Shown: positions 1,593-64,000 of the stretch, piece by piece | Position numbering within the stretch: the stretch's first letter is position 1 | How the letters are laid out: every line of letters begins with the position of its first letter | Position numbers and translations under genes: made by a program | Notes under the pieces: model-generated | Told to the model about the DNA's origin: nothing | Database searches by the model: none | The model's input: the letters and a program-made list of their open reading frames with translations, nothing else | DNA from: Laetmonice hystrix | Taxonomy: Eukaryota | Length of the DNA stretch: 64,000 bases | Direction: 5' to 3' | Assembly (NCBI GenBank): GCA_965235115.1 | Contig: OZ249436.1 | Location: forward strand, 21,764,001-21,828,000

Positions 1593-2885
1593 AGTATTCT
1601 ACCCCGATTCATTTTTCGAATCGGATACTGCAGTCGGGGGCAGCCAGGAACCATGGTTACCGACTAGAGTTGGAAAAAATCGGGAAAGTGTATGGCAGGC
1701 TTTACCCCTTTATAGTAACGTAAAGCTCACCCAGCCACTGTTCTGACATCTGCTGCTGCAGTGCTGCATGACAGGACAAGGGATGCTGTGGTAGTCCAGG
1801 AACCTAGACCCTGTTATCGGTCCTGGGAAAACCATCTCAGTCAACACTCGCTAATAAATAATATCAAATAAATTTGACTAATCTCTGCCAGGCAAGGATG
1901 CCTGCACCAACATTCACTGCTGAGGAATGTGTCGTCCCGCTCAGCCCGGTATACAGGTTGGAGTGGAATTGTAAGGGAGACTAGCCTCAGCAAGTGGGGA
2001 CGACACAATAATGGAGGGGGAATGATAACTGGAACAGTGTGTGTATGAAGGAATAATTTACTGGTAGAACTTGCGAGAGGTTGATGTGAAATAGCCAGTA
2101 ATATAGGAGACTGTCAACAAATGAGGGAATAGAACTTACCGGAGAAGTGGAGTGGCTGATGTGGATGGTGAGGTTCTCCTGGCTATCTTGTAGGGTGGCT
2201 ATAAGGCGTCAAGGTGTCTAGGTATAGGTCCATCTCTCTCTCTCTGTGTCTGTCTATCGGATAGGATTTTGTGGGACTTATATACCGTGGGCACAGCTCA
2301 TAGTCAAGTATGAACCATGCCTGCACCCACCTTCTGCCCATGGTGAGAGGGAGTGGTTTTTCCTACAACATACCCTAATAATATCTGGTGGTGCAAAGGG
2401 AGGACCAGCAGCAAACCCCCAAACTACGTGGGACGTCAGAGATGACCACTGGTCAGTCGATGTCCCCACCACACAAGGCCTGGGATAGGTGTTAGGGGAC
2501 CAGGGATCTCATGCTGGAGATTTTCCGTTGTGCCACCATATCTCCACTCCACATCCTCCTAAGATTAAAATAGGTATAAACAGAAGACGCTCCTGTGGTA
2601 TAATGCAGGTTCTACCACTCCTAGCCGTGCACATATTTCTGACCTGTGTGTGGCCTCTGCACACCACTTCCAAAATAAGACCACGTCTGCAGCAAAAATA
2701 TGAGAATACACTTGATGAATGCCAGCACAAGCCATTTGTTGCTGAGGGATCCCCCGACTAACCATTTGCTGCTGAGTGATGCCCTTACCAGCCATTCACT
2801 GGGTGGGGAAATACCATCATCAATGACGAAAGAGACTTTTAAAATCACAATATTGACCTTCCACTCATTTATTTTCCAGATAACC

Positions 2886-4138
2886 ATGCCACTATTTGGG
2901 AACAAATTTAGCCCCAAAAAAGGTTTACCACGCAAGTCTACATCTCTCTCTAATCTTAATCTTGACGTCAGTGAACGCCGAGAAGAATTTGGTCTTGATT
3001 ATGGACCTATTAAGCTGAAACTTGGACCAAATGAAATCACTTTTGACAATGGACAGTGGATAGCAGGTAGCTATTTTTGTAGCAGAATCCTTACCAAAAT
3101 GCGAGTTGCTAATTTTTGGACTAATAAATTTTTTGATGTAATAACTTTAGGTTGTGTAAGTTGTGTTGTGCTAAATTTTGTGCAAATCTTTGTAGTGTTT
3201 TCACCTTATACTTAAGTCTCTAATGTTAAAAAGGCATTTTAAGGCTCCAATTTTAGAAATGATATTGAAAAAAATCTGAAATATACATATACAAATTCAC
3301 AGATATCCCTTTTGTGTTGTCTACATAGTGCATTCATGATGTTATGTCATTTGCACATGCAGAAAGTATGGGAGGAAGTCAGCGTGAGGTTGTGCATATG
3401 AAGAAACAAAACCACCAATTAACAGAGGAGAACAATTTGTTAAAACTAAAAGTGGAGCTGCTGCTTGATATGGTGAGTGGTGACATACCATGGAGATACG
3501 GCAAAAAAATATAACTAACAGAACCAAAGGATTGTTGGTTTTTTTTGCCCCCCAAAAGAGGCATATTGATAATGTTATGGAATGTATTGACTGTATTTGC
3601 AGCAGTTACTTAAAGGTAAACTCTATTGAATTCGGTTTCCACGTCGGACTGCAGCGATGGCCCAATGTCACGTACCCGTTCTAAAAATTGAACGCCCCGT
3701 TCCCACGACCTGTCACAGCCCTTCGTACAGCGGCCCCCCCACCCCCACCCCCCCACCCCCACCCCAGTCGCTCGCTCTCAGGGTGGGAACAGTTCGTTCA
3801 ATTATTAGAACTGAATTCAATAGAGTTTACCTTCAACATCTTACAAATACACATATTTGAACAAGTTGTATTCTGTATGTATCTTCTCTATTTAAAACTA
3901 CTCTGCGGAGATAGTATCTGATAGAAGTGATAGATATTTAGGCGGTATCTGAAAAAGACAAGAAGGTGAGCATATTTAAATGGTTATGTATGTTTGCTAC
4001 AAGGAAGATGATTTAAGCTTAAAGTGGAAGAGGCATAACATGTGTTCTTTTATATTTCAGCTGGCGCAATCGACTGCCGAAGTGCATCTTCAGGAGAATG
4101 AAATTGAACAGTTGAAACGACTTTCTAAAAAGAAATGA
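2886..4138 (+). CDS. CBY1: Protein chibby homolog; coding exons 2886-3066, 3363-3472, 4061-4138 (122 aa)
   Basis: MPLFGNKFSPKKGLPRKSTSLSNL...FDNGQWIAE...LTEENNLLKLKVELLLDMLAQSTAEVHLQENEI is the characteristic Chibby sequence. All introns are GT-AG and in frame; AATAAA at 4574-4579. Confidence 0.96.
3614..3832. mobile_element. Kolobok-type MITE in a CBY1 intron
   Basis: TIR AGGTAAACTCTATTGAATTC / GAATTCAATAGAGTTTACCT; TTAA on the left, TCAA on the right. Confidence 0.75.
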
Positions 4139-6287: not shown

Positions 6288-6720
6288 CCCTGATAAAACA
6301 CACACGCTGGTACAACTTTGGGCCAACGTCAACAGCTACGTTGGGCCACCGTCAGATGCCAACATTGGACCCAGGTCATTTTGCTCATTGGGCCCATGTT
6401 GGGCCACCAGTTGGGCGAACGTTGAAACAGGCCATTGGCCCAACGTCAGACCAACGTGCTTACAAACGTTGAGCCAACGTCAGATGCCCGACGTTGGACC
6501 AACGACATTTTGCTCATTGGGCCCATGCTGGGCCACCAGTTGGGCGAACGTTGAAACAGGCCATTGGCCCAACGTCAGACCAACGTGTTTACAAACACTA
6601 TTACGTCTAATACCAATGCTGGGCCAACGTCAGATGCCCGACGTTAGAGCAACGACATTTTGCTCATTGGGCCCACGTTGGGCCATCAGTTGGGCCAACT
6701 TTTGGCACGACCTTGCTGGG
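6288..6720. repeat. Repeat built from TTGGGCCAACGT palindromic motifs (~120-bp internal duplication), CCC...GGG ends
   Basis: TTGCTCATTGGGCCCA recurs at ~6381, ~6500 and ~6660. Explains the repetitive ORF 6280-6759. Confidence 0.7.
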
Positions 6721-7575: not shown

Positions 7576-7659
7576 TTAAAGTCGCTAAAAGCTAACCTGG
7601 ACTGTATTTGAGACAGGCTGTAGTCAATCTCACTGATAACAGCGCTAGGTACAGAAGAA

Positions 7660-8610
7660 TTCCAACGTTGGGCCAACATTGGTGTTCCAACTGGGTTCCA
7701 ACAAAGAGGGTGGCAATAGTACTGACTTAATGCAACAAATTGGGCCAACGTGGGTATTCCAAGCGGGTTCCAACAAACAGGGTGGCAATAGTACTGACTA
7801 AATACCAACATTGGGTCAACGTGTGTGTTCCAACCGGGTCCCAACTCCAAAACTGGCGACAGTGCTAAACAAATACCAACGTTGGGCCAACATGGATGTT
7901 CCAACCGGGTCCCAACTCCAAAGCTGGCGACAGTGCCGACCAAATGCCAACGTTGGGTCAACATTGGTGTTCCAACCGGGTTCCAACAAAGAGGCTGACG
8001 GCAGTGCTGACTAAATAACAACGTTGGGCCAACGTGGGTGTTCCAACCGGGTCCCAACTCTAAGGCTAACGACAGTGCTGACTAAATGCCAACGTTGGGC
8101 CAACATGGATGTTCAAACTGGGTTCCAACAAAGAGTGTGGCAATAGTGCTGACTAAATGCCAACATTGGACCAACGTGGGTGTTCCAACCGGGTTCCAAC
8201 AAAGAGGGTGGTGACAGTGCTGACCAAATTCCAACGTTGGACCAACATGGATGTTCCAACCGGGTTCCAACAAAGAGGGTGGCGATAGTACTGACTAAAT
8301 ACCAAAATTGGGTCAACGTGTGTGTTCCAACCGGGTCCCAACTCCAAAGCTGGGTTCCAACAAGAAAGGTGGCGACAGTGTTGACTAAATTCCAACGTTG
8401 GGCCAACATGGGTGTTCCAACCGGGTCTTAACTCTAAGGCTGGCGACAGTGCTGAATAAATACCAACATTGGGCCAACATGGGTGTTCCACTCGGGTTCC
8501 AACAAAGAGGGTGGCAATAGTACTTACTAAATGCTAACATTGGGCCAACGTGACGGGTTCCAACCGGGTTCTAACAAAGAAGGTGGCGACAGCGTTGACT
8601 AAATACCAAC
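7660..8610. repeat. 71-bp minisatellite, ~13 diverged copies
   Basis: Unit CCAACGTTGGGCCAACRTGGGTGTTCCAACCGGGTTCCAACAAAGAGGGTGGCGACAGTGCTGACTAAAT; unit starts at 7805, 7876, 7947, etc. Confidence 0.9.
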
Positions 8611-11623: not shown

Positions 11624-12568
11624 GAATGACGGGGAAGGCGCTTAAAATTAATTCACGTTACTGTCGAAATGGTCGTAAGCATGCAGTGTTGGTCTATAGG
11701 CTATATATAGGCCTAGGTGTCACATAGGTATCATAGCTAGAATGCGTGGTGCGATTAGAGTACCTATATAGACTACATGCATGGATGCACAGCCAGAAGA
11801 CCGAGAATTTCAATAAAGGCGTCATAGTAGTCGGGGATCCAGACACCCAAAATTTGAGAGGACCTGACATGGCTTGCTATACTTTTTGTTTGTGTTTTTT
11901 CTATTAAATTGGTCATTAAGGTCCACTGAATGAGAGGTCTGCTCTGCTGGAAACCTTGCGAAAAAAAATTGTGGCCATTTTTGTATATGCGCCCTTTGTT
12001 TTTTTAGGGAAAAATGTGAAATATGTATTTTTTATTAGAATCTATGGTGGGTTGTGCAGGCTGTCAATAAATGCATCCCAGATACACAGAACACATGTGT
12101 TGACAACATTAAGTTCAGAAATTCACTTACAAAACCTTTCCAAATGATTTAGCATCATTTTTATGCAAAAGCGCCCCTGATTTTTTGGCATTTTTTCATT
12201 ATCTTCATCTTTACTTCATTATTAATCAAATATAAACCCTAAGTTATGACATAAGGCAATGTGTTATTCTTTTCAGCAAACATTATAGTCATTCCACAGT
12301 AAACATTTTGAAAATCAAACCAAAATCAGTGGATCTGTGGCGATTTCATTAACCCTACCCCCCAAACTGCAAATTGTGTCCGAGACATCAATGTATTTGA
12401 TTTGACTACTATTTCGTTTTATAGGCTATTAACAGAGGCATCCTTGGGGCTTCCAGTTATTTTCTACTTAATTTCCAGATGTTTCAGGTTAAAGACAGGG
12501 ACCAAAAGACTTACTATTACCCTTACTCCCAGAGATTCCACGTATATTTATATCAATTTAGCATCATG

Positions 12569-14424: not shown

Positions 14425-17400
14425 TGAAACAACCGGTAATTAAGTAGAAAAAATACTGGAAACTCCAAGGATACCTCTGTAGATCACCTATAAAATGCAA
14501 TAGAAGCCAAATCAAATACATTAAAAAATGTTGACGTTTCAGCCACAATTTGCAGTTTGGGGGTAGGGTTAATAAAATCATTACAGGTCCATTGATTTTG
14601 GTTCGATTTTCATAATGTTTACTGTGGAATGATTATAATGTTTGTTGAAAAGAATGGCACATTGCTTCATGCCATAACTTAGGGCGTAGTTGATTAATGA
14701 TGAAGTAAAGATGAAGATAATGAATAAAATGCACAAAAATCAGGGGCGCTTTTGCATAAAAATGGTGCTCAATCATTTGGAAAAGTTTTGTAAGTGTATT
14801 TTTTAACTTGATGTTGTCAACACATGTGTTCTGTGTATCTGGGATGTATTTATTGACAGCCTACACAACCCACTGAGGATTTTTAGGAAAAATACATTTT
14901 TCACATTTTTCGCTAAAAAAACAAAGGGCGCATATACAAAAATGGCCACAATTTTTTTTCGCAAGGTTTCCGGCAGAGCAGACCTTTCATTCAGTGGACC
15001 TTAATGCCCAAATTAATAGAAAAAACACAAACAGAAAGTATAGCAGGCCATGTCAGGTCCAACCCATTTTATTGAGCTTTTGGGCCTGTGGATCCCCGAC
15101 TATAGATCTATACCAGCCGTTTCAGAACTATTTATGCCCTATTGCAATAATCGTCTGTCCCATACGCAAACAGAGTTGACGGACGGGACTCGAACGGGGG
15201 GCTGACGGGGTGGAGAACTCGTCATATCGTTGTATTGACGGACGTAGCCTAATTCAAACGGGACGAACCCCCCCCCCCCCAAGTGCCATAGAAGCGTTAT
15301 TATAGGCATACTGTGTGTGTACGCGGGGTATCTCTGGTGGAGAGGGTCATATCCTCCCGTATCATGCCGATTAAACCAGCCTTGCCCTGAGAAACGGGAA
15401 TGTGCAGCCTATACACACCCATGTTGAGCAGGATGCAGTCAAACGATCGCTTCAAATTCGATAGCAGGGCGTAATTCGCGGGGGGGGGGGGGGCCTAGTT
15501 GTGCCTAATGATTAACCTATCTTATACAAGGGAGAACCTTAGACTCTGTTCGCCTAGCCCCCTCAATAATTCAATGGGAATTATCTAGCCCCTCAATAAT
15601 TTGATGGAAATTACGGGCCTGATGTATAGGCCTAAGCTCCAAAATGATATCAGCCCGGCTACAACTCCCAACGCTATACAAGCGATTGCTCGTTGAATTC
15701 GGGCAAATTGGTCTATAGATTTCGTCTAGATCTATGCTTTCGCTTCACGATCATTTACAGAGTTTGGCCCCTGGCACTGTTTGTGGGTCGAGTGGTCAGC
15801 ACGGGACCAATAAAACCTTTCTGCATGAACATGATCGGCCTAGACCTGTCTATAACTGACCCAGATCAATCTTATCCCTTCGCAACGCATGATTCCTTTG
15901 AAGCTTTTTACACCTTTTGAACGGTCTTTATATTGTATGTGTTGGAAAGTCTGTTTGGCAAATCAATTATTCTCGACAGTTTTTATATTGGTTATGGCAT
16001 TGGTCGATAGGTGTCTCTGCATGCACGTTGTTCTTCAATGACATATCTGGGGTGTGGAGTTGGAGGGTTGATGTCCTGGGTTCATTGACTCAAGGGGAGG
16101 AAGGGCGACTCCAGTAAAGGCTATGGAAAGACGTCACGCATGAAACAACCGGTAATTAAGTAGAAAAAATACTGGAAACTCCAAGGATACCTCTGTAGAT
16201 CACCTATAAAATGCAATAGAAGCCAAATCAAATACATTAAAAAATGTTGACGTTTCAGCCACAATTTGCAGTTTGGGGGTAGGGTTAATAAAATCATTAC
16301 AGGTCCATTGATTTTGGTTCGATTTTCATAATGTTTACTGTGGAATGATTATAATGTTTGTTGAAAAGAATGGCACATTGCTTCATGCCATAACTTAGGG
16401 CGTAGTTGATTAATGATGAAGTAAAGATGAAGATAATGAATAAAATGCACAAAAATCAGGGGCGCTTTTGCATAAAAATGGTGCTCAATCATTTGGAAAA
16501 GTTTTGTAAGTGTATTTTTTAACTTGATGTTGTCAACACATGTGTTCTGTGTATCTGGGATGTATTTATTGACAGCCTACACAACCCACTGAGGATTTTT
16601 AGGAAAAATACATTTTTCACATTTTTCGCTAAAAAAACAAAGGGCGCATATACAAAAATGGCCACAATTTTTTTTCGCAAGGTTTCCGGCAGAGCAGACC
16701 TTTCATTCAGTGGACCTTAATGCCCAAATTAATAGAAAAAACACAAACAGAAAGTATAGCAGGCCATGTCAGGTCCAACCCATTTTATTGAGCTTTTGGG
16801 CCTGTGGATCCCCGACTATAGATCTATACCAGCCGTTTCAGAACTATTTATGCCCTATTGCAATAATCGTCTGTCCCATACGCAAACAGAGTTGACGGAC
16901 GGGACTCGAACGGGGGGCTGACGGGGTGGAGAACTCGTCATATCGTTGTATTGACGGACGTAGCCTAATTCAAACGGGACGAACCCCCCCCCCCCCCCAA
17001 GTGCCATAGAAGCGTTATTATAGGCATACTGTGTGTGTACGCGGGGTATCTCTGGTGGAGAGGGTCATATCCTCCCGTATCATGCCGATTAAACCAGCCT
17101 TGCCCTGAGAAACGGGAATGTGCAGCCTATACACACCCATGTTGAGCAGGATGCAGTCAAACGATCGCTTCAAATTCGATAGCAGGGCGTAATTCGCGGG
17201 GGGGGGGGGGGGGCCTAGTTGTGCCTAATGATTAACCTATCTTATACAAGGGAGAACCTTAGACTCTGTTCGCCTAGCCCCCTCAATAATTCAATGGGAA
17301 TTATCTAGCCCCTCAATAATTTGATGGAAATTACGGGCCTGATGTATAGGCCTAAGCTCCAAAATGATATCAGCCCGGCTACAACTCCCAACGCTATACA

Positions 17401-17860
17401 AGCGATTGCTCGTTGAATTCGGGCAAATTGGTCTATAGATTTCGTCTAGATCTATGCTTTCGCTTCACGATCATTTACAGAGTTTGGCCCCTGGCACTGT
17501 TTGTGGGTCGAGTGGTCAGCACGGGACCAATAAAACCTTTCTGCATGAACATGATCGGCCTAGACCTGTCTATAACTGACCCAGATCAATCTTATCCCTT
17601 CGCAACGCATGATTCCTTTGAAGCTTTTTACACCTTTTGAACGGTCTTTATATTGTATGTGTTGGAAAGTCTGTTTGGCAAATCAATTATTCTCGACAGT
17701 TTTTATATTGGTTATGGCATTGGTCGATAGGTGTCTCTGCATGCACGTTGTTCTTCAATGACATATCTGGGGTGTGGAGTTGGAGGGTTGATGTCCTGGG
17801 TTCATTGACTCAAGGGGAGGAAGGGCGACTCCAGTAAAGGCTATGGAAAGACGTCACGCA
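14425..17860 (+). repeat. Tandem duplication of a ~1.72-kb unit (14425-16140, 16141-17860)
   Basis: The copies give identical ORF-track translations, and the only differences I found are in poly-C/poly-G lengths. TGA microhomology at the junctions. Confidence 0.95.
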
Positions 17861-18709
17861 TGAGTACTCAGGGATTCCATGCATGATAGGATAAGGGCAC
17901 AGTTATTGAAACTGCTTAGGGTCGATTGAAGGCATTGGTCGGAGGAGTCTATAGCCGATTCAAATATGCCAAGAATATAGGCCAACAGTCCCAGCGCATA
18001 TTATTAATGCTCACAAGGCCGATACATAGGTCCTCGTATACCGGGGTAGTTTCCAAACAGGCAATTTGTTATCTTTTGAATAAATCTGACTACGCACTAA
18101 ATGTAAATTTATGGAGAATTTTAAGTTGACCTCGTCGACATGTAAAGTTCGGTCCAATATAACCCATGACAGCTAGGCCCTATACCCTGAGCAAGGACAA
18201 AAATGGGACCAGATTGCAAATAATCTGAGATTAGAGTTCCCCTATAACTATACTATAGTATAGTTAGCCACAACTCAAAATCCTTTCCAATAGCTTGCGA
18301 GTACAACTGCTCCGCCACAGAGGGAAATGAGATTTAAAAAATCGTTTCTCTCTTGAAAACAAGAATGGTTTTCTATTGGAAAAGTGTTTTATTATTATTC
18401 CCATGAATACAGATCTACACGATATTTGGAGACCTACCTCCGTTGTACCCAACATTAGGGGTGGCCATACCAATTTTCTCCGGACAAAAGAACATACACA
18501 TTGTTATGAGGCCAATACGAGAAGATCGAGGGAATAATATAGTTAATTATGTTCCCTCGAAATCATTACGAGGGAATGCAGTAACTTATTTCTTGGAAAC
18601 AAATTTATTTTATGGTAACGAAATAATTAGTCATCTCACGGAACAGAATAACATTTAATCATGGGGACGAAGTGATTTTATAAAAATCAAGTAATAGGCC
18701 TAGATTCTA

Positions 18710-28800: not shown

Positions 28801-31800
28801 TTGAAGGTGAACAGTCGCAGGAGTTGTTCAAAGGTTCATTCTGGTCAAAGCTGCCAGCTGAAAAGGTGGTGCTTGATCAACATGTCCTGTACATTTAGAT
28901 GGACGTCATCAAATATTCGCTTTCGCCTTTTTTTCAGTAGCTCCCAGTCAAGACAGAGTCTAAATGACAATGGTGCAAGGATCCTGCAAGTAATAACACC
29001 AGGTAATATTGGAGGAATTAATGAAGTCAGGTAACAATGGTGTATATCGGGAAGTTATTGGTCGGTGTCGCCAGTCCTGACCATGCCACTGTTTGGATTC
29101 ACGGGGTCATACAATACAGAAATCATCCAGGGATAATAAAAAAATGAAAGCCAAAAAAAAAAGAGAGAACATTGTCTTCACAAAAGTATCTCAGCAAGCC
29201 TGCAAACAGTTTAGTCTCATGTTTGGGTTGTATTATTTGTATTTCTTTCTGTTTTCCCCTTGAATTTTTTTTCAAATTGATTTGTAATGTACCCATAAAA
29301 GATGTACAACAAAAGACGGATACACTGCTGACCTGAGTTCACACTTGATCTGCACCCATCCTGGACTTCGTATAAACGACCACGGATGGTACCACTTCTC
29401 CACGATGTCAACACATGAACACAACGTTTCCAACCAAAGGTGCAGCACCTGCTCACTGCAATGTCAGAGGATAAGGCAACATGCTTCAATGAAAATACAA
29501 TGTATACCTTTCCTCCGGACGCTCTTTGCTCAGATGAAACCCAATGACTTCTATCACTCACATAGTGAGCAGTGAAGGGAGGATCTAGTATCATGATACA
29601 AATTACTGTAATAGACCTGCCGCTTTCCTCAAGCTAATTTCAAAATCCTTAAATACAGAGTGTGTCTTTACATCACATTCAATAACTTGTATTTCTACTC
29701 ACTTAAGTCCACAGCATATAAGCGACCTAAACTTGACATCCATCTGAGCGTGGGCTGAGTCGTGGGTTAAATTCACGGACTGCACAGCCTGTCAACACAG
29801 AGGTTTTACATTACATTCACTTTATGAACAGATAACCTATAGTTATAATATAAGTCACTATATGAAAACATAAGAATTTTACTAAATTTATGTAACGTAA
29901 TTTGTTAGAAAGTGATCACTTCCATAGTCATAAAAATAATCCACAATATAAAAACAGAAGAATATTTATTTAATTAAAGTAACGTAATTTGTTAAAAAGT
30001 GACCACTTCCATAGTCATAAATATAAGCCACAATATAAAAACATAAGAATTTTTACTTAATTTAGGTAACAGAATTTGTTAGAAAGTGGTCATTTCCACT
30101 CTACCTTACAAAATACATACTTACCTGGCATATGATCATATCTCTATACATTTTGTATTTAGAACCATGTTCTCGGTTTCTAACACTGAATAATCTTCAA
30201 ATAAACGTGAATAAGCCTGTCACTGAGCAACAGTTCATAAATACCGGTACATGTGTAATATATGAACTGATTAACATTCATTTAAATTAACATTCATGTA
30301 CGTAGTACCGTAATGTAAAAACTACCGTATTTATGAAGGTCAATAAGGACTCACCCGATAGAGGATCTCCTCAGGAGTAAGTACCTTGCCGTCTTCATCC
30401 AATCTGAAATTATCAACATGAACAATTTCTTTATCCAGGTCAGGGGTTGAAATTCAGTGGTCAAGGCGCTCGGCTAGATGTCCACAACCAGTGGACAGGG
30501 AAGGTACCCACGATGTCAGGCGGGGGGGGGGGGGGGCTTACACCGATAGATTTCAGGGTACATTTCATTCCAACTATTCTGTGTCGTGATGTGGAAACGA
30601 GGACTGTTAAGTTTTAACTTTTTTTTTTCTTCAAAATGTTTAATTTGTATGGGACTAGAAGATAGAAAAATATATATTCTATGATTTATAGGTCTGCATC
30701 GTACCGTGAGATCTAATACAAGTCTATTAGAAGCCCACTTATATGCTGGCTTCTTTCTCCATGCCTGAATTTGTATAGTATCTTATGATCTGAAACTGAG
30801 CCAAAACATCCTTTGTCATAACACTGAAGGCCATCATATGTGACTTGACATGTCCCCCAAAAAGTGTCTCCCTAAACAAAATGATCACATCGTATGTATA
30901 AGTTTCTCTTGGCCACACGTGCATTGAAAGTCGCTGTGGTCACCTGGCCATTGTGCAATGAAGCATGAATTTATCTGGACCTAACGGAGACAGATAATCT
31001 AATAATTTCAGTGACTCATCTTTCAAGGATCATCTGAATTTCTCTGTTTTTCACACAGGTTTTAATCCCCCCCCCCCCGGTGTAACGCTAAACGTATGTG
31101 CACCCGAGGAAAACCCTTTTAAAAAGTGTTAAAGTGACAATTTTGGGGGGCATTCTGTAGAGGTTAGTTATGTAAATTCACAGCTTTCACGTGCTGTCTA
31201 ATTATAGCCCATGCTTGGTCTTTTGTAACAGGTGCCCAAGGCCTTCTGTGGTTCTGACATCGGTGACAAACAGTCAGTCAGGTCCAAACTGTCACCTTAC
31301 ATTCTCACTAAAGGCCAACACACACACTGCGACTGCTTGCAACTCCTTGCGACGCGACCGTCGTGACCCAGTTTTTAACCCGAGCTCATCTATACAGGAC
31401 GGAATGGAGTCTTGCGACGGTCGCAGAGGTTCTGGCACTGTCAGAACGTCTGCGACCGTCGCAGGCTGTTGCAGGCCACTCATTGCCATAGCGACGGACC
31501 GTCGTGAGACCGTCGTGCGACGGGTAATCGCAGTGTGTGTGTTGGCCTTAAGATTACAATGTGCTAGTTTTCACTGAATGGGGAGGGGAGGAGATTAAAA
31601 CCTGTGCGAAAAACATAGAAATTCAGATGATCCTCCAAAGAAATTATCTGTCTCTGTTACTGTTAGGTAGCTAAACATTCCAACTCCAAGTATGTTTTCA
31701 GTGTAGAGGCCTACTGAGGGATATGCTCCCGGTGTTTGCCTCGCTGTTATTGTCAGTGTGTGCATGAGAGTTTGGGATTGTATGTAGGTCATGTTGTCAA

Positions 31801-55146: not shown

Positions 55147-55222
55147 GCCCGATGAGGGAGTTATTCGAACCCGCGACCCTCATATTAAAAGTGTGATGCT
55201 CTACCGACTGAGCTAACCGGGC
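55147..55222 (-). pseudogene. tRNA-Lys(UUU)-derived pseudogene or SINE head
   Basis: GCCCGGTTAGCTCAGTCGGTAGAGCATCACACTTTTAATATGAGGGTCGCGGGTTCGAATAACTCCCTCATCGGGC has the tRNA-Lys D-arm and a TTT anticodon, but a mismatched anticodon stem and an insertion in the T-arm. Confidence 0.75.
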
Positions 55223-55341
55223 TCCATAAAATATTATTGCCAATCAAGTAAATTAAAAAATACTTGAGCCTCTCATTTGGGGGAAACACAAGCCAGAGTC
55301 CGGATGAGACCCTTTTGACCTTAGGGGGCTGTTAACATGGA

Positions 55342-55799
55342 AAACACACACGGCAAATAAGGTTTCGTAGACCAAATGAAACACCAGCATTTACCTCAGG
55401 GCAATAAATGCCACAATTACGTTGTCTGAATGAAGTAGGGGCCAATATAATTAACGTGTAGGCCCTATAACTGACCGATGTGTGACGCCGCTGGTTCTAA
55501 CCTTCCTCTGCTTGTGTGTTCATCACCTCGGACTTTCACAAACGTTGGGACTCCAAACATCGTGTAGACAAGGTCGGTGAGCAGAGTAACACGTAATGTT
55601 ACGCAATATGCCGTAGTGTGCATGCATTCGGCTCTGATGAACACACAAGCAGGTCGAGGTCAGAACCAGCGCGGCGTCACACATCGGGCAGTTACGCGTT
55701 AATTACTTCATTCAGACAACTTAATTGTGGCATTTATTGCCCTGAGGTAAATGCTGGTGTTCCATTTGGTCTACAAAACCTTATTTGCCGTGTGTGTTT
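55342..55799. mobile_element. Long-hairpin element with ~185-bp inverted arms, CACAC/GTGTG ends
   Basis: CACACACGGCAAATAAGGTTTCGTAGACCAAATG ... CATTTGGTCTACAAAACCTTATTTGCCGTGTGTG. Confidence 0.8.
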
Positions 55800-57225: not shown

Positions 57226-57475
57226 CACCGGGGACCAGGCTAGCTAATTGAGGCCTGCTACACCACATAAAGGAACACAAACTCTAGTATTGCAATTATA
57301 CTGAACTGTTCCCTGTTAATACATGACTATATTTTTCTACCAGGTGAACGACGGGTTAGAACATCGTCCCGGGGGGTTTTCGTTGTTTCCCCCATGCGAT
57401 ATATTTCTGTTGTTATTTTGTTGCTATTATTTATCTAACTTTTTTGGCTAAATGCTATAATTCATGGAGCCCGGT

Positions 57476-57575
57476 NNNNNNNNNNNNNNNNNNNNNNNNN
57501 NNNNNNNNNNNNNNNNNNNNNNNNNNNNNNNNNNNNNNNNNNNNNNNNNNNNNNNNNNNNNNNNNNNNNNNNNNN
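57476..57575. other. Assembly gap (100 N)
   Basis: Run of N; the transposon array starts mid-unit right after it. Confidence 1.
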
Positions 57576-57656
57576 CAGGAGGCACCCTCCACAAACGAGT
57601 CTACGTTTACTCAGTAACCTGCCCTGTACTTCTGTGACAGCCTGCCGCGGCTCCAT
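57576..57656 (-). CDS. 5' part of a His-Me finger nuclease copy, truncated by the gap
   Basis: MEPRQAVTEVQGRLLSKRRLVCGGCLL, identical to the starts at 60201 and 62292. Confidence 0.8.
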
Positions 57657-57753
57657 GATGCTTTGGTGGGTATGGGTGACACTCTCTGAATGTTGACTTT
57701 GGCAACCAGAAGTAAAATTCCTTTGTATAGTGAGTTTCCCATCAGGCCCCTAC

Positions 57754-58204
57754 AGGTTATGATCCACTATTTATTTTCTTCTATAATTTAATGTAATGTT
57801 TTGGCCATTTTCAATGTTTAAAATAATTTCTGCGAATGTCTGCTTGGCATGGCAGGTTAGATATGCATGTTTCCGACAATAAAAACTCAATTTACGTATA
57901 GGTTGAATGATTAGATTTTATTTTATCGGAGCTTCTGTTACATGACCCCAGGTGGCACCACCAAATCGACCAGAATACAGGCCTGTGATACATAACATAT
58001 TGGCTAAGATTTTCCAAGGAAAGTTAAGCAGATATTCTCTAATAATACACTGATATTATTGATCATATAGTGAACTTTTTCTCTGTGGTATTTGATGAGC
58101 ACATTCAGGGGGGTTATATCCATTCTTGGCCCTAGATACATTCACTCCATACCATTTTTGAGGGACAACCAGCAGCCCATTGGCTAAATAGGGGGTCATG
58201 ACCT
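57754..58204 (+). repeat. Long terminal direct repeat (LTDR) copy 1, 451 bp, with its own imperfect TIRs
   Basis: AGGTTATGATCC ... GGGTCATGACCT (10/12 inverted match), AC on both sides; near-identical to 62390-62839. Confidence 0.85.
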
Positions 58205-58931
58205 ACAGATCAAGACCCATCACCCCGAATCTGTTCAAAATTGGACCCCTTTAATGGTTATATGTTTGCAACAACCACACAAAATATAAATGGTGTAGAC
58301 TAAATGAAGACTGAGTTATCGATCATATACAATATGGACACTCGGAGATAAAAAAAACCCTATTTTGCCCTGCACTCATAGCAGTATTCTGACTTTGTGC
58401 ACAAATTAGACAATGAATAAAATTCATCTATGAACTTCTCATTTTAGTTATGTATTAAGCCAACATGTAAAGTGTTCAAAAGTTGAAATTAATAAATATA
58501 AAGTGAGAATCTTCATTCCCTATGAAGCATGTGAGTACCCCCTGTCATATTTTCAGTAAAAAAAAAGGTCCACTTTATTATATTTATCCCCATATCTCCC
58601 TATGTTGGATTTCAAAAGTGTCAAATTCAGTTGAGGGAATATGGGAAGGATGTTAACTTCAAAGAAACATCAAAAGAGATGTACTCCAAGTGTCTGTGTG
58701 GATGTATGGACCCCTCAAAGGTGGTCACCCACCCCAGGCAGGAAGCCTAGGTTAATAGGGGGAGGGGTTCAAAGGTGCCACTTGAGAGTCTGAGCTGCCT
58801 GGGAAGAGGGTGGGAGTGGGTATATATGAAGCCAACAGGCAGATCAAACTCAGTATCATTTTTCTGTTTGATTAGAACAGGATTTAAAAAAAAATTCGCC
58901 TAAATTATAGAGAATTTCTTAGAAAACTACC

Positions 58932-59712
58932 ATGACATCACGTAGCAGAAAGAAGCACAGCTGGAGACATGGCTTTCAACCTGGTAACTGCGCCTACAAG
59001 TTGAGAAAGCAGGCCGGTAGGCCTGAACCAGACGTAGGTGTCTATGTAAGACCCACCAAAGAAGAATTCGAATTACTCCGCTCACCTACACACAGTGGAA
59101 GAGGAGATCAGGCTGCAGCCACCATCACCGACAGTGAGGGCCGGCTGTGCAAGGCAAGGCCTTGCAAACAAAAAAAAGAAAAACTGGCTGTCACACAGTG
59201 CATTCCTGCCTGAGGGCTTTGGCCTTACATGCACGGATGGTGACAAGGAGAAACTGGTCAGACTGATTGAATACAGGCTGGGCCAGAAAGTCCTGGAAAA
59301 GACCAAACACCTGTTAACCACCCAGAAATGTGAAGCTGTCAACAGGGCCATAAGCAGTACAACACCCAAGAACAAAACATTTTCAAGGAACTTTGCTGCC
59401 AGAGTGCACTGTGCTGTGAATGCTGTGAATCGAGGGATTGGTGATTCAATCCTGAGTCAAACAGAGTTTGTGGGAGCCCCAGTCACTCCTGGTACACGGG
59501 TGACACGTGGCCTGCTGCGACGTCAGCAGCAGGACATGGCCAGAAAACTTGCCAGGGGGTCAACAAAGAAAAAGAATGCACGAATCAACAAAAGAAGGAC
59601 ACTTTTTAAGCTTAAGGACACCTGCGAACCACAGGATTCTAAAACTTATTACCAGAAAAATCTTGCCTTGAAACAGACTCAGCACAGTGACCATACCTAC
59701 ACAAAAATGTGA
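58932..59712 (+). pseudogene. Internally deleted, frameshifted Kolobok-type DDD/E transposase (copy 1)
   Basis: N-terminal part MTSRSRKKHSWRHGFQPGN.. shifts frame at an A8-G-A5 tract (~59170) to a C-terminal part with TTQKCEAVNRAISSTTPKNKTF..HCAVNAVNRG. This resembles the TQN.NE..N....PK motif around the catalytic Glu of Kolobok/'Mutator-like' transposases. ~260 codons is too short to hold the core. Confidence 0.75.
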
Positions 59713-59784
59713 ACATAAATTATGGCGGTGAGAGAGCTCGGGGTTAGACCTAAACTAAAGCTACACCTACCAGGAAAAAAACAG

Positions 59785-60201
59785 TTAGGGGGGCCTAGGG
59801 GTGTGTTCCCGGGTGCAAACTTGCTGTGCATTACAAACACGTCTTGCAGCATTCACTGGACGTGGCTCAAGGGTCAGGTGGGAGGGATTCACACACAGGG
59901 TTTGGTGGCACAAATGGCTAATTTCAACCCTATCTCCCTGAAGATTGATGTTGGGGGGCATTAAAATCTGAACCGAAATGTGGTTAATATTTGGTTGTTG
60001 AATAAGGTAGTGTAATTGATAGGCTAATCTATGGACACGAAAATAAATCTTTTTAGAGGAACCTGGCAAACGAAGACTTAGAACCCCATAGTGTGAATCT
60101 CCCCACCTGGCCTCTGTCCACAGGAGGCACCCTCCACAAACGAGTCTACGTTTACTCAGTAACCTGCCCTGTACTTCTGTGACAGCCTGCCGCGGCTCCA
60201 T
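59785..60201 (-). CDS. His-Me finger (His-Cys box, I-PpoI-like) endonuclease, 138 aa (copy 1)
   Basis: CLLW..YG..VHRLAY..EISHLCHQTLCVNPSHLTLEPRPVNAARRVC...C..H matches the zinc-binding loop of His-Cys box homing endonucleases (zf-His_Me_endon). Confidence 0.9.
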   Translation of the reverse strand: MEPRQAVTEVQGRLLSKRRLVCGGCLLWTEARWGDSHYGVLSLRLPGSSKKIYFRVHRLAYQLHYLIQQPNINHISVQILMPPNINLQGDRVEISHLCHQTLCVNPSHLTLEPRPVNAARRVCNAQQVCTREHTPRPP

Positions 60202-61021
60202 GATGCTTTGGTGGGTATGGGTGACACTCTCTGAATGTTGACTTTGGCAACCAGAAGTAAAATTCCTTTGTATAGTGAGTTTCCCATCAGGCCCCTACAG
60301 ATCAAGACCCATCACCCCGAATCTGTTCAAAATTGGACCCCTTTAATGGTTATATGTTTGCAACAACCACACAAAATATAAATGGTGTAGACTAAATGAA
60401 GACTGAGTTATCGATCATATACAATATGGACACTCGGAGATAAAAAAAACCCTATTTTGCCCTGCACTCATAGCAGTATTCTGACTTTGTGCACAAATTA
60501 GACAATGAATAAATTCATCTATGAACTTCTCATTTTAGTTATGTATTAAGCCAACATGTAAAGTGTTCAAAAGTTGAAATTAATAAATATAAAGTGAGAA
60601 TCTTCATTCCCTATGAAGCATGTGAGTACCCCCTGTCATATTTTCAGTAAAAAAAAGGTCCACTTTATTATATTTATCCCCATATCTCCCTATGTTGGAT
60701 TTCAAAAGTGTCAAATTCAGTTGAGGGAATATGGGAAGGATGTTAACTTCAAAGAAACATCAAAAGAGATGTACTCCAAGTGTCTGTGTGGATGTATGGA
60801 CCCCTCAAAGGTGGTCACCCACCCCAGGCAGGAAGCCTAGGTTAATAGGGGGAGGGGTTCAAAGGTGCCACTTGAGAGTCTGAGCTGCCTGGGAAGAGGG
60901 TGGGAGTGGGTATATATGAAGCCAACAGGCAGATCAAACTCAGTATCATTTTTCTGTTTGATTAGAACAGGATTTAAAAAAAAATTCGCCTAAATTATAG
61001 AGAATTTCTTAGAAAACTACC

Positions 61022-61803
61022 ATGACATCACGTAGCAGAAAGAAGCACAGCTGGAGACATGGCTTTCAACCTGGTAACTGCGCCTACAAGTTGAGAAAGC
61101 AGGCCGGTAGGCCTGAACCAGACGTAGGTGTCTATGTAAGACCCACCAAAGAAGAATTCGAATTACTCCGCTCACCTACACACAGTGGAAGAGGAGATCA
61201 GGCTGCAGCCACCATCACCGACAGTGAGGGCCGGCTGTGCAAGGCAAGGCCTTGCAAACAAAAAAAAAGAAAAACTGGCTGTCACACAGTGCATTCCTGC
61301 CTGAGGGCTTTGGCCTTACATGCACGGATGGTGACAAGGAGAAACTGGTCAGACTGATTGAATACAGGCTGGGCCAGAAAGTCCTGGAAAAGACCAAACA
61401 CCTGTTAACCACCCAGAAATGTGAAGCTGTCAACAGGGCCATAAGCAGTACAACACCCAAGAACAAAACATTTTCAAGGAACTTTGCTGCCAGAGTGCAC
61501 TGTGCTGTGAATGCTGTGAATCGAGGGATTGGTGATTCAATCCTGAGTCAAACAGAGTTTGTGGGAGCCCCAGTCACTCCTGGTACACGGGTGACACGTG
61601 GCCTGCTGCGACGTCAGCAGCAGGACATGGCCAGAAAACTTGCCAGGGGGTCAACAAAGAAAAAGAATGCACGAATCAACAAAAGAAGGACACTTTTTAA
61701 GCTTAAGGACACCTGCGAACCACAGGATTCTAAAACTTATTACCAGAAAAATCTTGCCTTGAAACAGACTCAGCACAGTGACCATACCTACACAAAAATG
61801 TGA
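61022..61803 (+). pseudogene. Internally deleted, frameshifted Kolobok-type transposase (copy 2)
   Basis: Same as copy 1 but with an A9-G-A5 tract. Confidence 0.75.
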
Positions 61804-61875
61804 ACATAAATTATGGCGGTGAGAGAGCTCGGGGTTAGACCTAAACTAAAGCTACACCTACCAGGAAAAAAACAG

Positions 61876-62292
61876 TTAGGGGGGCCTAGGGGTGTGTTCC
61901 CGGGTGCAAACTTGCTGTGCATTACAAACACGTCTTGCAGCATTCACTGGACGTGGCTCAAGGGTCAGGTGGGAGGGATTCACACACAGGGTTTGGTGGC
62001 ACAAATGGCTAATTTCAACCCTATCTCCCTGAAGATTGATGTTGGGGGGCATTAAAATCTGAACCGAAATGTGGTTAATATTTGGTTGTTGAATAAGGTA
62101 GTGTAATTGATAGGCTAATCTATGGACACGAAAATAAATCTTTTTAGAGGAACCTGGCAAACGAAGACTTAGAACCCCATAGTGTGAATCTCCCCACCTG
62201 GCCTCTGTCCACAGGAGGCACCCTCCACAAACGAGTCTACGTTTACTCAGTAACCTGCCCTGTACTTCTGTGACAGCCTGCCGCGGCTCCAT
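61876..62292 (-). CDS. His-Me finger endonuclease, 138 aa (copy 2)
   Basis: Translation identical to 59785-60201. Confidence 0.9.
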   Translation of the reverse strand: MEPRQAVTEVQGRLLSKRRLVCGGCLLWTEARWGDSHYGVLSLRLPGSSKKIYFRVHRLAYQLHYLIQQPNINHISVQILMPPNINLQGDRVEISHLCHQTLCVNPSHLTLEPRPVNAARRVCNAQQVCTREHTPRPP

Positions 62293-62389
62293 GATGCTTT
62301 GGTGGGTATGGGTGACACTCTCTGAATGTTGACTTTGGCAACCAGAAGTAAAATTCCTTTGTATAGTGAGTTTCCCATCAGGCCCCTAC

Positions 62390-62839
62390 AGGTTATGATC
62401 CACTATTTATTTTCTTCTATAATTTAATGTAATGTTTTGGCCATTTTCAATGTTTAAAATAATTTCTGCGAATGTCTGCTTGGCATGGCAGGTTAGATAT
62501 GCATGTTTCCGACAATAAAAACTCAATTTACGTATAGGTTGAATGATTAGATTTTATTTTATCGGAGCTTCTGTTACATGACCCCAGGTGGCACCACCAA
62601 ATCGACCAGAATACAGGCCTGTGATACATAACATATTGGCTAAGATTTTCCAAGGAAAGTTAAGCAGATATTCTCTAATAATACACTGATATTATTGATC
62701 ATATAGTGAACTTTTTCTCTGTGGTATTTGATGAGCACATTCAGGGGGGTTATATCCATTCTTGGCCCTAGATACATTCACTCCATACCATTTTGAGGGA
62801 CAACCAGCAGCCCATTGGCTAAATAGGGGGTCATGACCT
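62390..62839 (+). repeat. LTDR copy 2, 450 bp
   Basis: AC|AGGTTATGATCC ... GGGTCATGACCT|AC. Confidence 0.85.
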
Positions 62840-63565
62840 ACAGATCAAGACCCATCACCCCGAATCTGTTCAAAATTGGACCCCTTTAATGGTTATATGT
62901 TTGCAACAACCACACAAAATATAAATGGTGTAGACTAAATGAAGACTGAGTTATCGATCATATACAATATGGACACTCGGAGATAAAAAAAACCCTATTT
63001 TGCCCTGCACTCATAGCAGTATTCTGACTTTGTGCACAAATTAGACAATGAATAAATTCATCTATGAACTTCTCATTTTAGTTATGTATTAAGCCAACAT
63101 GTAAAGTGTTCAAAAGTTGAAATTAATAAATATAAAGTGAGAATCTTCATTCCCTATGAAGCATGTGAGTACCCCCTGTCATATTTTCAGTAAAAAAAAA
63201 GGTCCACTTTATTATATTTATCCCCATATCTCCCTATGTTGGATTTCAAAAGTGTCAAATTCAGTTGAGGGAATATGGGAAGGATGTTAACTTCAAAGAA
63301 ACATCAAAAGAGATGTACTCCAAGTGTCTGTGTGGATGTATGGACCCCTCAAAGGTGGTCACCCACCCCAGGCAGGAAGCCTAGGTTAATAGGGGGAGGG
63401 GTTCAAAGGTGCCACTTGAGAGTCTGAGCTGCCTGGGAAGAGGGTGGGAGTGGGTATATATGAAGCCAACAGGCAGATCAAACTCAGTATCATTTTTCTG
63501 TTTGATTAGAACAGGATTTAAAAAAAAATTCGCCTAAATTATAGAGAATTTCTTAGAAAACTACC

Positions 63566-64000
63566 ATGACATCACGTAGCAGAAAGAAGCACAGCTGGAG
63601 ACATGGCTTTCAACCTGGTAACTGCGCCTACAAGTTGAGAAAGCAGGCCGGTAGGCCTGAACCAGACGTAGGTGTCTATGTAAGACCCACCAAAGAAGAA
63701 TTCGAATTACTCCGCTCACCTACACACAGTGGAAGAGGAGATCAGGCTGCAGCCACCATCACCGACAGTGAGGGCCGGCTGTGCAAGGCAAGGCCTTGCA
63801 AACAAAAAAAAAGAAAAACTGGCTGTCACACAGTGCATTCCTGCCTGAGGGCTTTGGCCTTACATGCACGGATGGTGACAAGGAGAAACTGGTCAGACTG
63901 ATTGAATACAGGCTGGGCCAGAAAGTCCTGGAAAAGACCAAACACCTGTTAACCACCCAGAAATGTGAAGCTGTCAACAGGGCCATAAGCAGTACAACAC
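63566..64000 (+). pseudogene. Transposase remnant, copy 3 (runs off the window)
   Basis: Same as copy 2, including the A9 tract. Confidence 0.75.

Follow-up and report, generated by a model that had tools for sequence, protein, structure and literature searches.

An INT-INT junction without its LTDR in a non-autonomous KolobokP array: probable excision by a transposase supplied in trans

How did one junction between two internal regions (INTs) of a tandem array come to be without the LTDR, a module of ~450 bp, that stands at the neighbouring junctions? Self-comparison and exact alignment of the window, by which we mean the whole 64-kb stretch of DNA that was analysed, gave the array order INT end, LTDR1, INT1, INT2, LTDR2 and partial INT3, with the following features:

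57476..57575, no strand: 100-N assembly gap; the array begins straight after it, and the insertion's left end is hidden
57576..57750, plus strand: last 175 bp of INT0 (3' end), the same sequence as at the ends of INT1 and INT2
57751..57754, plus strand: TACA, 4-bp spacer from INT to LTDR1
57755..58203, plus strand: LTDR1, 449 bp, GG...CC ends, imperfect TIR (15/18)
58208..60295, plus strand: INT1, 2088 bp from spacer to spacer; internal region, non-autonomous
60294..60300, plus strand: empty INT-INT junction, inside the 7-bp common word CCTACAG; the single TACA is 60296-60299
60300..62386, plus strand: INT2, 2087 bp, with a split transposase and a nuclease ORF as in INT1
62391..62838, plus strand: LTDR2, 448 bp, with TACA flanks at 62387-62390 and 62839-62842
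62843..64000, plus strand: INT3, partial, cut through by the window end

Three junctions between an INT end and an INT start lie in the window, and the array continues past its end. The outer ends of the insertion, where KolobokP has a TSD of 3-5 bp, fall in the gap and beyond the window end. The LTDR was present at 57745-58218 and 62381-62853 and absent at 60290-60310, confirming the two filled junctions and the single empty one reported in the first-pass annotation. The loss at the empty junction was exact, with zero bases extra or missing and 452-453 bp gone in total. LTDR1 and LTDR2 differed by 1 single-base indel and INT1 and INT2 by 3, all of them in homopolymers. Because these indels are the sole differences between copies, substitutions tell nothing of the order of events. 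No solo LTDR or INT was found elsewhere within the 64-kb window.

Several other repeats were seen around the array. A tRNA-Lys-like sequence recognised by eye on the minus strand (window 55150-55262) ends at ~55225; ARAGORN called no tRNA gene for it. The 19 bases before the gap at 57476 correspond to its beginning, read in the opposite direction, and inverted similarity (72%) runs inwards for ~50 bp (57425-57475). These may be the two tRNA-like ends of a 2.2-kb element beside the array. An imperfect inverted repeat of ~460 bp (55342-55799, self-match 73%) is likely a foldback MITE. Further away, 14425-17863 is an exact tandem duplication of 1.72 kb (99.8%), either a recent duplication or an assembly overlap; both copies contain a portion of a 650-bp repeat that recurs in inverted orientation at 11860-12509. 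A minisatellite whose period is around 71-72 bp (7658-8610), short tandem repeats (6338-6702 and 29839-30098) and an exon of a Chibby-family gene (2870-3070; PF14645, E 4.8e-17) were also noted.

The word CCTACAG (7 bp) was common to both flanks at all five boundaries (57749, 58202, 60294, 62385 and 62837), and the boundary can thus be drawn in several equivalent registers. Kolobok elements have RR...YY ends and 4-bp duplications (PMC9587614), and published KolobokP LTDRs start with GG in 29 of 30 cases and end with CC in 27 of 29, in the part of the PMC9587614 supplement available to us (30 of 222 entries). The register that fits Kolobok, a GG...CC module with TACA on each side, is therefore preferred over one that has an A...T module and AC as its spacer; a 2-bp AC duplication gave way to TACA, given the GG...CC ends and the published LTDR ends. 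Read in this register, what looks like an additional A-T pair is accounted for by TACA itself, by its last and its first base. CCTACAG consists of the spacer together with CC and G, which the LTDR termini dictate, and the empty junction is without one LTDR and one TACA. The clean loss described in the first-pass annotation as that of the module plus one AC thus holds, with the AC spacer replaced by the 4-bp TACA. The final 10 bases of each LTDR form a perfect palindrome (58194-58203 and 62829-62838).

Judged on these features and on its coding content, the array is a non-autonomous family of KolobokP DNA transposons. LTDRs of ~450 bp (449 and 448 bp) flank the INT, and published KolobokP LTDRs fall into length classes of ~450 or ~660 bp (PMC9587614, Table S1). 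The LTDR has its own imperfect TIR (15/18), of a kind that measures roughly 11-18 bp in KolobokP, and ends of the RR...YY type, GG...CC. A DDD/E transposase lies on the direct strand, deleted as in non-autonomous families, and a His-Me nuclease (PF05551) on the opposite strand. The monomer measures ~2993 bp, or ~4.2 kb with the transposase deletion filled, sizes that fall within the published non-autonomous and autonomous ranges. The KolobokP INT-INT substructure, in which the LTDR is missing and one 3-4-bp spacer is left between two INTs (PMC9587614), was also found, as the single TACA at 60296-60299. A tandem array of an LTR retrotransposon or TRIM was rejected on the GG...CC ends with TIR, where such arrays would end in TG...CA, and on coding remnants of a DDD/E transposase and a nuclease in place of a reverse transcriptase. 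Within the accessible part of the published KolobokP consensus sequences (228 families), three terminal motifs gave 0 matches in a search that motifs split by line breaks escape, and the right-TIR motif gave one match with unrelated flanks. In the available portion of the published alignments (PMC9587614 supplement), TQKCEA is present as a peptide 32 times, a lead only. The coding features were as follows:

58923..59160, plus strand: N-terminal fragment of the transposase (DDD/E); P0001 residues 52-134, ~45% identity
59170..59712, plus strand: C-terminal transposase fragment, carrying the motif TQKCEAVN; P0001 residues about 537-719, 72-73% identity
about 61013-61803, plus strand: split transposase of INT2
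59785..60201, minus strand: His-Me finger (I-PpoI-like) nuclease ORF of INT1, 138 aa
62292-61876, minus strand: nuclease ORF of INT2

About 400 central residues of the transposase are deleted, including the entire Pfam Mutator-like domain of P0001 (161-536 of 719 residues); the break point of the N-terminal fragment was placed from a loose end at 63794 in a public run (X5). Full-length homologues, which bear PF20700 (Mutator-like), were matched by the C-terminal fragment in 8/8 cases and by the N-terminal fragment in 3/8. The nuclease ORF matched PF05551 (E 1.9e-13) and I-PpoI (E 1.5e-4). Its catalytic S-H, H, E and N are present and did not vary across 14 aligned relatives of the 150 listed. 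Seven of the eight zinc ligands are in frame and the last Cys is frameshifted away: the frame ends after H-T-P-R-P-P, and the Cys-bearing tail of the closest relatives sits in another frame. This Cys is kept in 124 of the 133 motif-bearing relatives among 150 examined. Since contigs of two public runs (X1 and X2) are identical there, its loss is a trait of the family and no assembly slip. An exhaustive homologue search with the nuclease gave 628 matches, and a word-based one gave 0 matches among 10 candidates.

The stretch is contained in 7 of 13 listed public runs, and four of them (X1, X2, X5 and X7), each of them a contig set, were compared over 61450-63990. In X5 a contig of depth 9568 runs from 62384 straight to 62837 and skips the 452 bases between; 7 bases at the joint can be assigned to either side. 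The empty junction was thus present in one of the four runs compared, and X5 may be the assembly's own sample; the contig represents real DNA or RNA with the junction and does not imply recurrence in other individuals. Read support for the junction, a point raised in the first-pass annotation, is provided by this contig. The contig at the INT start in X5 has a depth of 25000, a rounded number and perhaps a cap, and the resulting ratio near 0.4 is a rough upper guide that gives no copy number and no ratio of filled to empty junctions. Two further deletion joints are listed for X5, one of 121 bp at 62753-62875 with a depth of 4874 and one of 33 bp at 62302-62336 with a depth of 1518; each has a 2-3 bp overlap. 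The 121-bp deletion takes out the right TIR and the INT start, and the 33-bp one lies directly upstream of the nuclease start codon.

That misassembly of a collapsed repeat adjoining the gap produced the empty junction is scarcely credible. The array does abut the 100-N gap and its copies differ just at homopolymers, and no LTDR-skipping joint was found in X1, X2 or X7, whose depths of 3-9 are uninformative on absence and whose contigs may drop rare forms. The X5 contig, however, spans the exact joint at high depth; the junction is therefore no assembly slip and this explanation is largely refuted.

The same comparison gave indications of a parent element. In X1, an independent marine metagenome, one contig bridges INT-LTDR2-INT without differences and a second crosses the transposase deletion. 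Among the six loose ends listed for X5 (of 13), five stood at the LTDR ends (62384-62385 and 62839-62844) against unrelated DNA, positions at which solo and terminal LTDRs are indistinguishable. The loose end at 63794, the transposase deletion point, extends the frame (LRPLRHVQT, hand-read, against FLRPVQRTPT in P0001), indicating that a less deleted parent exists in the X5 organism. Such a parent could supply enzymes in trans.

The anatomy of the array, its family, its broken transposase, the one TACA left and the occurrence of the junction in a public run are established; the question is then how the LTDR left. We think that it was probably excised by a transposase supplied in trans from an intact copy elsewhere, a reading drawn from the sequence. 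The enzyme would cut out the TIR-bounded 450-bp LTDR, and the identical TACA flanks would rejoin as one, possibly by religation of complementary 4-base ends as in piggyBac. The excised piece may have been a single LTDR or a longer LTDR-INT-LTDR block, the product being the same either way, and the junction would then probably have multiplied with the array by unequal crossover. In agreement with this hypothesis, the ends of the deletion coincide with the GG...CC termini plus one spacer. LTDR-(INT)n-LTDR insertions with a single 4-bp junction spacer have been described in three mollusc families (Kojima and Bao 2022, PMC9587614), and the accessible entries include the same exact loss in KolobokP-1_MeMe (4 insertions), KolobokP-4_MyCo and KolobokP-7_MeMe (PMC9587614). 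Kojima and Bao 2022 ascribed such INT-INT junctions to LTDR excision (PMC9587614). The earlier proposal that the LTDR is an independently excisable unit agrees with that reading and fits our data, but a single event amplified in the array explains the junction equally well. For the same reason the abundance in X5 is no tally of excisions, one amplified event giving the same depth.

A spontaneous deletion between the two CCTACAG words, by replication slippage or, once a break had arisen at random, by microhomology-mediated end joining, with no enzyme of the element and with spread by unequal crossover, would leave the same junction. The first-pass annotation had pointed this out, and the flanks do share all 7 bp. 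Since the products are identical, sequence cannot prove which enzyme, if any, acted. The two other X5 deletions, with their overlaps of 2-3 bp, reached depths of 1518 and 4874, and the deep 121-bp joint, whose ends are unrelated to the TIRs, indicates that deletions made without a transposase also spread in the array. We nevertheless regard a spontaneous deletion as improbable. Each unit holds 85 direct-repeat pairs of at least 7 bp within 500 bp, and 1 of the 85 gives the LTDR-exact loss; the other 84, equally good, were absent among the listed X5 joints. The LTDR-exact pair was the only such pair among the three listed joints and the deepest of them (9568 against 4874 and 1518). Exact loss of the LTDR also recurs in published families with shorter overlaps: by eye, in the available part of the PMC9587614 supplement, the flanks across the LTDR share 4 bp in KolobokP-1_MeMe and 5 bp in KolobokP-4_MyCo. 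A 7-bp homology is thus unnecessary, and the depth of the LTDR-exact joint in X5, together with recurrence in three mollusc families, favours an event directed to the ends of the module. Published KolobokP footprints that were restored mostly lose 1-5 flanking bases on one side, which suggests a circle-forming pathway over clean religation (PMC9587614). Our literature search found no assay of a KolobokP transposase.

A junction that was never filled, made by joining INTs end to end or kept as a pre-insertion site at which the LTDR duplicates TACA, is very unlikely. TACA on both sides of each LTDR resembles a target duplication, but the same 4 bp are part of the INT consensus ends in ordinary published monomers (PMC9587614, in the entries accessible). 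The 3' tip of the INT carries no TIR-like sequence (2/11 at the 4-bp register), leaving the INT without an evident way to move alone. End-to-end joining of INTs, which the first-pass annotation had offered as an origin of the array, finds no support here.

The boundary between LTDR and INT has a symmetry of its own:

58193..58218, no strand: 26-bp near-palindrome of right TIR, TACA and TIR-like INT tip, 9/11 symmetric
62828..62853, no strand: same 26-bp near-palindrome at the second LTDR-to-INT junction

The INT 5' tip matched the right TIR in 9/11 bases at the exact 4-bp register and in 10/18 over a longer span (by hand), and the inner TIR motif is absent from it. Symmetry of 9/11 round a 4-bp centre was found at this sole site among 2580 unit positions (window background 30/57380), and the empty junction retains 1/11. 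The LTDR could therefore have been lost after a break at this junction, repaired by annealing of the two CCTACAG words; the break would be made by the His-Me nuclease of an intact copy or by the transposase acting on one end. We consider such a break unlikely, though deserving of more than passing attention. As the palindrome is destroyed with the loss of the LTDR, the product would resist re-cutting and accumulate, and the near-palindrome is both unique in the unit and without its symmetry at the empty junction. Two of the three X5 deletion joints (452 and 121 bp) take it out, and abutted TIRs have been suggested as a semi-palindromic nuclease target, I-PpoI cutting round a central 4 bp (PMC9587614). 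On the other hand, the near-palindrome was spotted post hoc, just one non-focal deletion overlaps it (chance ~6%), the INT tip is without the inner TIR motif (10/18) and the nuclease in these copies is without its last Cys. Among 27 published families compared by eye, none exceeded 6/11 at the 4-bp register, yet INT-INT junctions occur in other families; these are the 30 INT starts covered by the available part of the supplement, out of 39 listed, minus 3 with a missing LTDR or an incomplete start. KolobokP-4_CGi, the only such family in that part, showed 9/11 symmetry by eye at a 6-bp offset (PMC9587614 supplement). A TIR-like INT tip was also considered as the cause of the published 40:6 INT-LTDR asymmetry, an unexplained INT-LTDR excess in KolobokP-4N1_CorFlu (PMC9587614), and rejected, that family reaching only 4-5/11 by eye in the available entry.

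A wider scheme would be that each LTDR-to-INT boundary mimics an abutted-TIR circle junction and is cut by the nuclease or the transposase, driving both growth of the array and LTDR loss, with the empty junction as a cut-resistant form that has come to make up a large fraction of the copies. We hold this scheme to be a long shot; if true, it would give the first candidate target of a KolobokP nuclease and make an induced-crossover model testable on a 26-bp substrate. The model of the KolobokP nuclease awaits experimental confirmation according to the part of a 2026 review available to us (PMC13565253), and our literature search found no experimental support for LTDR excision or for a role of the nuclease. 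Excision of the LTDR by a transposase acting in trans is the reading that we prefer, and the present locus, a very young high-copy array with filled and empty junctions and signs of an undeleted parent, is well suited to tests of LTDR excision and of the part played by the nuclease.

Collectively, the data add one family and one INT-INT junction to an already described phenomenon: the family is new and the type of junction is known. The proposed excision resembles that of piggyBac, in which an element with TIRs leaves from between two identical 4-bp words and one word is restored. Kolobok belongs to another superfamily, and complementary overhangs for its transposase are hypothetical. The ends of piggyBac are of the CC...GG type. 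It is established that 4-base overhangs are rejoined in piggyBac with no footprint left, as stated in the part of PMC3878927 available. Bacterial composite transposons and the circle junctions of IS3 and IS256 offer a further likeness, as a flanking module can exit alone and abutted ends enclose a spacer of target length (PMC9587614); in KolobokP, by contrast, the enzymes are encoded in the INT and not in the flanking module, and circles are hypothetical. The non-autonomous families KolobokP-4N1_CGi (2899 bp), KolobokP-N4_PatPel (2994 bp) and KolobokP-4N1_CorFlu (2637 bp; PMC9587614, Table S1) share with the present one a similar monomer length and an internal deletion of the transposase. Unlike them, the present family has kept its nuclease ORF nearly complete, apart from a frameshift that affects the last zinc ligand. 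The closest parallels are found in KolobokP-1_MeMe, KolobokP-4_MyCo and KolobokP-7_MeMe, tandem multimers with an LTDR of ~450 bp, a short TIR and RR...YY ends, a direct-strand transposase and an opposite-strand His-Me nuclease, in which the INT begins and ends with the same 4 bp and one copy of these stands at the INT-INT junction. Their spacer is TATA or TTAA, whereas that of the present family is TACA, and the present family differs further from the published multimers in an empty junction that is seemingly highly amplified and in a TIR-like INT 5' tip.
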